In this document: positions 26,754-27,398 of the stretch, one piece after another
Layout: each line of letters starts with the position of its first letter
Numbering within the stretch: the stretch's first letter is position 1
Origin: Pseudomonadota bacterium
GTDB taxonomy: Bacteria > Pseudomonadota > Alphaproteobacteria > Caulobacterales > Parvularculaceae
NCBI GenBank assembly: GCA_039180625.1
Contig: JBCDDE010000001.1
Span: 485,018-549,017, forward strand
Direction: 5' to 3'
Length of the DNA stretch: 64,000 nucleotides
Notes under the pieces: generated by a model
What the model was told of the DNA's origin: nothing
Database searches by the model: none
What the model saw: the letters and a program-made list of their open reading frames with translations, nothing else
Made by a program: the position numbers and the translations under genes

Positions 26754-26873
26754 GAATTTCCGAGGGGCGCGGGACGCCGTCCGCTGAGATCCGGTAGAGC
26801 GCGAAGTCGCGCCAAAGGCAGCCGGAGCACCCTTTGAACCTGATCGGTTAAGACCGGCGTAGGGACGGAGTTC
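26754..26873 (+). ncRNA. TPP riboswitch (translational) upstream of rid-thiC
   Basis: AGGGG...GCUGAGA...ACCCUUUGAACCUGAUCGGUUAAGACCGGCGUAGGGA; downstream ggacg/cgtcc stem flanks the AAGGAG SD at 26914-26919. Confidence 0.93.
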
Positions 26874-26927
26874 AGTGCAAGCCCGCCTTCCAACGTCGGA
26901 CGAACCGAAGCCAAAGGAGCGTCCGTC

Positions 26928-27398
26928 ATGACTAGTATTCAAAGAACAATAGCAGCGGGTCTTGCCGCAGCTGCTGTGCTGTCTGCCCCGGTTCGAGCTG
27001 AAGACGCCGGCCGTCAGGTCATCGTGCCGGACGCGTGGAAGAGCTCTTACGAGAGCCTGCACTACGCCCCGGCCGTGCGCGCCGGCGACTGGCTGATCCT
27101 CTCCGGCGTTGTCGCGGGGCTCGCGCCCGACGAAACGGCCGTTGATCAGGAAGCGGCGTTCGCGCGCGCCTTCGACGCCATCGGCGTTATCTTGAGCGAG
27201 GCCGGCGCCGACTGGGACGATGTTGTCGAGATCATCACCTATCACACAGACATGCCCGCGCAGATCGCGACCTTCGGCGAGGTTAAGGACCGCTACCTTA
27301 AAGAGCCTTATCCCGCCTGGACGGCGATCGACATCGACCGGCTCTATCCCGACCGCGGGATCGTGGAGATTAAGGTCACCGCTTACATGGGCGATTAG
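26928..27398 (+). CDS. RidA/YjgF family protein, exported, lacking the catalytic Arg
   Basis: Signal peptide; [41 protein letters not shown]. Confidence 0.88.

Follow-up and report, generated by a model that had tools for sequence, protein, structure and literature searches.

Why should a TPP riboswitch address the gene of an exported Rid-family protein before it reaches thiC, and what might such a gene be doing there? The question is raised by a 64,000-nucleotide stretch of alphaproteobacterial DNA (the window, by which we mean the whole of the stretch analysed), in which a first-pass annotation had placed the riboswitch directly ahead of a Rid gene and not of thiC. That gene order is confirmed: an RF00059 aptamer scoring 59.9 bits (gathering score 54.3), aligned to the full model from position 1 to 105, ends 45 nt upstream of the rid start, and thiC begins exactly 40 nt past the rid stop (Table 1). 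No terminator-like site was found by a scan of the + strand from the aptamer to thiC. The locus is a two-gene operon, TPP riboswitch-rid7x-thiC, with rid as the first gene behind the switch. The ThiC product carries both expected domains (PF01964, E 3e-183; PF13667, E 3.5e-29) and is 88-94% identical to the ThiC proteins of congeners, which also begin MNKH and by homology set the start of the gene. The aptamer contains the RF00059 junction motifs (CUGAGA, the ACCUGAU stretch of the pyrimidine-sensor helix, and GGGA), and it is predicted to bind TPP and to repress in a ligand-dependent manner.

Only two TPP hits were returned by an Rfam scan of the whole genome: this aptamer and a second, sub-threshold TPP-like element in the window (49.9 bits, with P3 unaligned), which is followed by ~690 nt with no + strand gene and faces a DsrE-like gene on the opposite strand. 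Since the second hit is a sub-threshold orphan, no coding unit of the assembly other than rid-thiC follows a detected TPP riboswitch. A sigma-70 promoter scan gave no match, which says little for an alphaproteobacterium. The window also contains a serC leader (57.4 bits) typical of Alphaproteobacteria and, directly behind thiC on the opposite strand, an AIPR-family ORF that is probably a foreign insertion (G+C 0.43-0.48 versus ~0.62 for thiC).

Table 1. Features of the window around rid-thiC, and arrangements and slot contents at the loci compared with it. Positions without a locus prefix are window coordinates.
Feature	Position or loci	Strand	Basis
TPP riboswitch aptamer (THI element), extended P3 with long insert	26753-26882	+	Rfam RF00059
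P1 3' strand, CGGAG	26866-26870
Expression platform: candidate anti-SD, SD, local hairpin	26883-26927	+	sequence, MFE, duplex energies
Candidate anti-SD, CCUUCC	26886-26891
SD, AAGGAG	26914-26919
Local hairpin	26896-26902 / 26920-26926		MFE
rid7x, putative exported Rid7/YjgH-like protein (P0001), 156 aa	26928-27398	+	PF01042
Predicted Sec signal peptide, residues 1-24 (...PVRA / ED)	26928-26999	+	heuristic
Trp131 codon (catalytic Arg position)	27318-27320		HMMER alignment
rid-thiC spacer, 40 nt, weak SD, no terminator	27399-27438	+	sequence, terminator scan
thiC (HMP-P synthase, radical SAM), full length, 634 aa	27439-29343	+	PF01964, PF13667
AIPR-family ORF	29394-30620	-
Second TPP-like aptamer, sub-threshold	22777-22873	+	Rfam
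serC leader	15638-15690	+	RF00517
Type A, TPP-[x]-rid-thiC	window, L001, L002, L003, L007
Type B, TPP-thiC-rid, gaps ~-19 to +37 nt	L037, L049, L055, L072, L074, L079		crude ORF call
Type C, TPP-thiC-x-...-rid	L029, L038, L039, L061, L080, L075
Slot empty, riboswitch directly before thiC	L086, L087, L091, L094
Slot: DUF2065-like membrane protein, 137-140 aa	L085, L088, L090, L093
Slot: exported MBL-fold protein	L089, L093
Slot: membrane protein, 178-187 aa	L092, L101
Slot: YphA-like 128-aa protein + rid	L096
Slot: unannotated 142-aa ORF	L095 (same order, different family)
Slot: rid alone	window, L097
Frameshifted rid orthologue	L101:1343-1812	-
rid in HlyD-ABC-MacB operon	L059:~3195-6890
158-174-aa protein between thiC and rid	L038:3015-3539, L039:2823-3302, L080:2800-3276, L133, L146
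Homologue of slot MBL-fold protein	L075:6410-7216	-

The interval between aptamer and rid suggests how the switch might act. The first-pass annotation described it as a platform that sequesters the Shine-Dalgarno (SD) sequence, and the pairings that such a platform needs are available: the candidate anti-SD has two possible partners, the SD (-6.6 kcal/mol), which lies 8 nt before the ATG, and the 3' strand of P1 (-10.5 kcal/mol), and a local hairpin present in the MFE structure ends 2 nt before the AUG. Equivalent triads of P1 3' strand, anti-SD and SD occur in orthologous leaders, with anti-SD:SD energies of -14.9 kcal/mol in L097 and -12.4 kcal/mol in L002. The pairing elements are thus present in all three leaders, but leader fold energies are no better than those of shuffled sequences (z -0.4 to -0.7). 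SD sequestration ahead of rid is therefore a plausible proposal that follows from sequence logic. In congeners with a different first gene, the P1 3' strand itself contains that gene's SD. The probable mechanism in the window is a thiM-like translational OFF switch composed of P1 3' strand, anti-SD and SD, which would act on rid first and on thiC through co-transcription and polarity, the latter step being taken from what is generally known of riboswitches in E. coli.

The protein that would come first under this control belongs to the Rid family by profile match and by predicted fold. Residues 45-153 match PF01042 at 64.4 bits (cut-off 27.3), and the score against TIGR00004, the RidA model, is 47.5 bits versus a cut-off of 106.25. 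An AF2 model built from a 30-sequence alignment has a mean pLDDT of 89; no 10-residue block of the mature domain falls below 89, and most exceed 92. Foldseek gave 173 PDB matches at E <= 1e-3, and every one of those listed belongs to the Rid family, with 3i7t and 1pf5 (Rv2704 and YjgH) at the head. A profile of the family searched against the PDB found YjgH (1pf5) at E 4.6e-25 (91 bits), the next best match having 4e-13, which makes YjgH the closest among solved structures, a set in which no Rid4 reference was identified.

In the HMMER alignment PYPAWTAI of the window protein stands against PYPARAAV in a solved RidA and against PYPNWTAV in YjgH. The position of the catalytic Arg is thus taken by Trp131, while Glu147 is kept; both residues are invariant in the 30-sequence alignment, which has 22 invariant columns in total. 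The window protein thus shows the Arg-to-Trp exchange with retained Glu by which Rid7 is recognised, a feature that Rid4 shares and that is not decisive alone. Taken with the structural matches, its sequence is Rid7/YjgH-like, and it presumably forms a homotrimer. With Trp in place of the Arg that binds the carboxylate, it cannot act as a 2-aminoacrylate/imine deaminase of the RidA type. Nor is it the housekeeping RidA, since the genome holds two further Rid paralogues, one of them a strong canonical match. These assignments agree with the subfamily literature, in which Rid7 is the YjgH-like subfamily, Trp replaces Arg in Rid4 and Rid7 with Glu retained, imine hydrolysis requires the Arg, the Rid7 protein of S. 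enterica lacks imine hydrolase activity, and the functions of Rid4-7 were described as completely unknown in 2015 (Niehaus 2015, PMC4433059). The first-pass annotation had likewise recorded the missing Arg, its need in imine hydrolysis and the unsettled function of Arg-less Rid4-7 proteins, all of which hold good, as does the export signal that it had read at the N-terminus.

For that signal the evidence is heuristic. Residues 1-28 are an N-terminal extension without counterpart in the cytoplasmic YjgH, and consist of a basic n-region and an Ala/Leu-rich h-region, followed by VRA/ED. A hydrophobic N-terminal segment is present in 99 of the 102 homologues whose domain start could be located, and about 30% of those 99 have a lipobox-like Cys. 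Export is thus heuristically predicted to be a trait of the whole Rid7-like family. One earlier line of explanation falls away here: the Salmonella RidA-PRA-thiamine connection, to which the first reading had appealed, concerns a cytoplasmic Arg-bearing enzyme, and we rejected it because compartment and active site both differ, leaving it no bearing on an exported Trp protein.

The family is not confined to this locus. It comprises 402 protein-database clusters, with at least 549 loci counted in the species genomes of GTDB and at least 520 in JGI metagenomes; searches at the DNA level relied on WTAID[IV]DR and VVE..T[YF]H as peptide patterns, so that the Trp is present in scanned loci by construction. 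Gene context was surveyed in the best 80 of the at least 549 genome loci (with Rfam) and in 80 of the at least 520 metagenome loci (with a motif scan). Among the 80 genome loci, 17 have thiC within 4 kb, and in 15 of these Rfam places a TPP riboswitch, in every case upstream of the unit that contains thiC; the other 63 have none, and at one of the two thiC-near loci lacking a hit (L075) the sequence ends within thiC. When neighbouring ORFs were clustered, thiC emerged as the most recurrent neighbour (16/80, the next reaching 11) and as the only one that recurs across clades.

Linked genes occur in three arrangements (Table 1). All seven species-level orthologues found (window, L001/L096, L002, L003, L007, L097 and L101), at 57-86% identity, lie between riboswitch and thiC in TPP-[x]-rid-thiC operons. 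At the six type B loci, all from Sphingomonadales (Erythrobacteraceae and Parasphingopyxis), rid instead follows thiC, and thiC-x-rid is found in Sphingomonas and Erythrobacter. In a maximum-likelihood tree type A forms one group (SH-aLRT 90), whereas types B and C are spread over several sub-groups of a Sphingomonadales clade, intermixed with unlinked members; a topology that unites all thiC-linked genes in one clade is rejected by an AU test (p 0.0008). On at least two occasions the family has entered thiC operons, with opposite gene orders. Linkage also holds at close range: among 50 genomes of the window's genus, three more have close orthologues (72-85% identity), all in TPP-rid-thiC order (L096, L097, L101), whereas same-genus paralogues at 35-58% identity have no thiC linkage. 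In an even sample of the family that contains Erythrobacter, 6 of 80 other genomes have a homologue, and three of the five checked adjoin thiC.

Across the wider family the picture changes. An even sample of 400 genomes from the class gave a homologue in 22, of which 14 have thiC and none of those 14 shows linkage, the remaining eight giving no thiC match. Neither thiC nor a TPP element is nearby in 63 of the 80 genome loci and in ~77 of the 80 metagenome loci; three of the latter are thiC-linked, in a set where most contigs are short and only 19 of 80 have at least 1.5 kb on both sides. No TPP element was found before a rid gene without thiC, either by Rfam in the 80 genome loci or by motif scan in the 80 metagenome loci. 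The expectation that the TPP-rid-thiC order would be shared by relatives is thus upheld for orthologues, and extended by a second, thiC-rid lineage, but not for the ~80% of the wider family that are unlinked and have no riboswitch of their own.

Several other neighbourhoods were seen in the course of the survey. In Allosphingosinicella/Sphingosinicella-like genomes (L059, L068, L070 and L077, also L058 and L078) rid sits between the ABC ATPase and MacB-type permease genes of an HlyD-ABC-MacB operon, where the gaps measure -3 to 23 nt, and in Hyphomonas-like genomes it sits between SDR and thioesterase genes. In Sphingomonas a conserved 158-174-aa protein with the motif CPDFDFQQGRW and a sub-threshold DUF1579 hint is encoded between thiC and rid. 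In Erythrobacter sp. NAP1 (L075), where thiC lies ~3 kb upstream of rid, a homologue (35-38% identity) of the MBL-fold protein described below is encoded ~2 kb from rid, an association that may recur elsewhere or be coincidental. No gene for a transporter or for thi salvage was found alongside rid at the loci surveyed.

What occupies the interval between riboswitch and thiC was compared at 15 thiC loci, namely the window, L085-L097 and L101, which represent the window, 13 congeners and one genome of the same order (L095). Every locus has one Rfam TPP riboswitch; four slots are empty and the others hold at least six types of cargo (Table 1). Outside this set, the slot of L003 encodes a 197-aa distant relative of the 178-187-aa membrane protein. 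Pfam gave nothing beyond sub-threshold hints for the 128-aa protein of L001, the 288-aa protein of L007, the 178-aa protein of L092 and the Sphingomonas 158-174-aa protein. The rid orthologue of L101, from a complete congeneric genome, has lost one nucleotide (GAGATC-TCACC, where the window reads GAGATCATCACC), which shifts the frame at codon ~102, and represents a pseudogene or else an error in the assembly. P0023, a metagenomic clade-A Rid protein, begins with 25 residues of which 16 are identical to the N-terminus of ThiC, followed by a lipoprotein signal; this looks like the scar of an insertion into the 5' end of thiC. A weaker ThiC-like N-terminus is seen in residues 1-25 of P0038. A recent transfer was considered on composition and rejected: rid has the same G+C (0.64) as thiC (0.62-0.65), so the capture is not recent. 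Read together, these comparisons show rid as accessory cargo captured, on this reconstruction, in the riboswitch-to-thiC slot in the ancestor from which a small Parvularculaceae-Hyphomonadaceae clade descends, and the conserved aptamer and thiC 5' end could act as recombination arms for the slot. As history, then, the alternative raised at the outset, that the gene was inserted between riboswitch and thiC, is borne out by congener slots that are empty or hold other genes and by the ThiC-derived residues of P0023.

The remaining issue is whether the position has a function. We propose that rid7x encodes a Sec-exported Rid7/YjgH-like protein, that its gene was captured in the riboswitch-thiC slot while the family separately joined thiC on its downstream side in Sphingomonadales, and that co-production with ThiC at low TPP would be beneficial, as the recurrent capture suggests. 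Most likely the protein would work in the periplasm, where it would bind or process compounds related to thiamine (pyrimidine precursors or thiamine breakdown products, for example) and not imines derived from amino acids. Two independent fusions of a rare family with thiC, in opposite order, and retention across families argue for such a role, and when genes of diverse organisms cluster in more than one arrangement, a functional relationship is held to be strongly implied (PMC4433059). Against it stand the ~80% of the family that are unlinked, the lack of an own riboswitch, the promiscuous slot, the frameshifted orthologue and the other tight contexts. On balance a thiamine-related periplasmic role for the Rid7-like protein is a serious candidate to which we would give somewhat less than an even chance. 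The wider claim, that exported Rid7-like proteins as such are periplasmic enzymes or binders of thiamine-derived compounds, induced with ThiC at low TPP, we consider unlikely. By way of example, the chemistry might be hydrolysis of a ring-opened thiamine enamine or action on aminopyrimidines, and the Trp could stack on a pyrimidine where the Arg of RidA binds a carboxylate. In this chemically appealing if speculative version, Trp would stand in for Arg because the substrate is a thiamine derivative of pyrimidine or enamine type and not a carboxylate.

The strongest rival draws on the same slot. If the interval ahead of thiC is simply a permissive insertion site, rid would be expressed for free as a passenger, and the protein would have a general periplasmic role unrelated to thiamine, as in the unlinked members. 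The variety of cargo, the empty slots, the ThiC-derived N-terminus of P0023 and the damaged gene of L101 are all in keeping with such a history, as are the predominance of unlinked members, none with a riboswitch of its own, and the fact that linked and unlinked members share the same invariant residues. It sits less well with the observation that one rare family (~5% of sampled Alphaproteobacteria) joined thiC at least two times in opposite gene order, where each event would by chance fall beside a particular gene with a probability of ~0.2% (8 kb in 3.5 Mb), and that clade A kept the linkage across families while protein identity fell to 57%. We regard this explanation as a real contender, if one that falls a little short of being probable.

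A quite improbable possibility is that co-regulation with thiC is adaptive without a metabolic link to the pathway, the protein mitigating a periplasmic or envelope effect of low TPP, for example a shortage of the products of TPP-dependent enzymes, without touching thiamine compounds. Most slot cargo in congeners is membrane-bound or exported, and rid has no transporter or salvage gene beside it, which would fit; the reading is nonetheless purely inferential, and the slot ORF of L095 shows no export signal. That rid is in essence a translated leader, whose ribosome occupancy couples the riboswitch to Rho-dependent polarity on thiC and whose product matters little, is very improbable: rid is indeed the first ORF after the switch, thiC has a weak SD, and a frameshifted orthologue exists, but the protein is strongly conserved over the 22 invariant columns, its fold is confidently predicted, the family is widespread outside thiC operons, and four congeners regulate thiC with no leader ORF.

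If exported Rid7-like proteins as such did prove to act on thiamine-derived compounds, an Arg-less Rid subfamily would gain its first biochemical function, and the salvage of environmental vitamin B1 a new step. A riboswitch names the physiological signal for making a gene, and Rid4-7 proteins are widespread; a twice-recruited exported Rid7-like clade thus offers a testable functional lead, with the periplasm as the place of action. More generally, the stretch that separates a riboswitch from its gene can be a variable cargo slot among congeners, which calls for caution when function is predicted from riboswitch regulons. Rid7 proteins and TPP-thiC operons are each already known, and we found no paper linking Rid/L-PSP proteins to thiC or a TPP riboswitch, or describing an exported Rid7 clade.

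Among known systems, the window family most resembles Rid7 (E. coli YjgH, 1pf5; S. enterica STM1549), with which it shares the Rid fold, a Trp at the Arg105 equivalent with Glu kept, and the motifs HY(A/S)xA(V/I)R(A/S)GD, (Y/F)HTD and PYPxWTA, YjgH being its best PDB match by 12 orders of magnitude. It differs in having a signal peptide or lipobox where YjgH is cytoplasmic, in the motif DxDRL where YjgH has GVTWL, and in its recurrence in thiC operons, of which there is no mention for Rid7 in PMC4433059, a text without the words thiamin, thiC, signal peptide or periplasm. With RidA (YjgF/TdcF/UK114) the protein shares the fold, presumably the trimer, and the conserved Tyr and Glu of the pocket; the RidA 2-iminopropanoate/2-aminoacrylate deaminases, however, depend on an essential Arg, whereas the window protein is Arg-less, predicted to be exported, and below the TIGR00004 cut-off. 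A further comparison is with the genes of thiamine salvage and transport that reportedly belong to riboswitch regulons (tenA, thiXYZ, thiT, ykoEDC). These families often have a riboswitch of their own and cluster with thi genes in many phyla. Like them, rid7x is an accessory, non-biosynthetic gene under a THI element, and a non-cytoplasmic location would suit salvage; unlike them, no member of the Rid7-like family had a riboswitch of its own in ~160 loci, and the family's only link, at ~20% of loci, is with thiC. Finally, the operon resembles the proteobacterial TPP-thiC operons under translational OFF control (E. coli thiM and thiC) in its canonical aptamer upstream of thiC and its SD-proximal alternative pairings. 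It departs from them in that the switch contacts the gene of an unrelated, putatively exported protein first, so that control of thiC must pass through the rid ORF.
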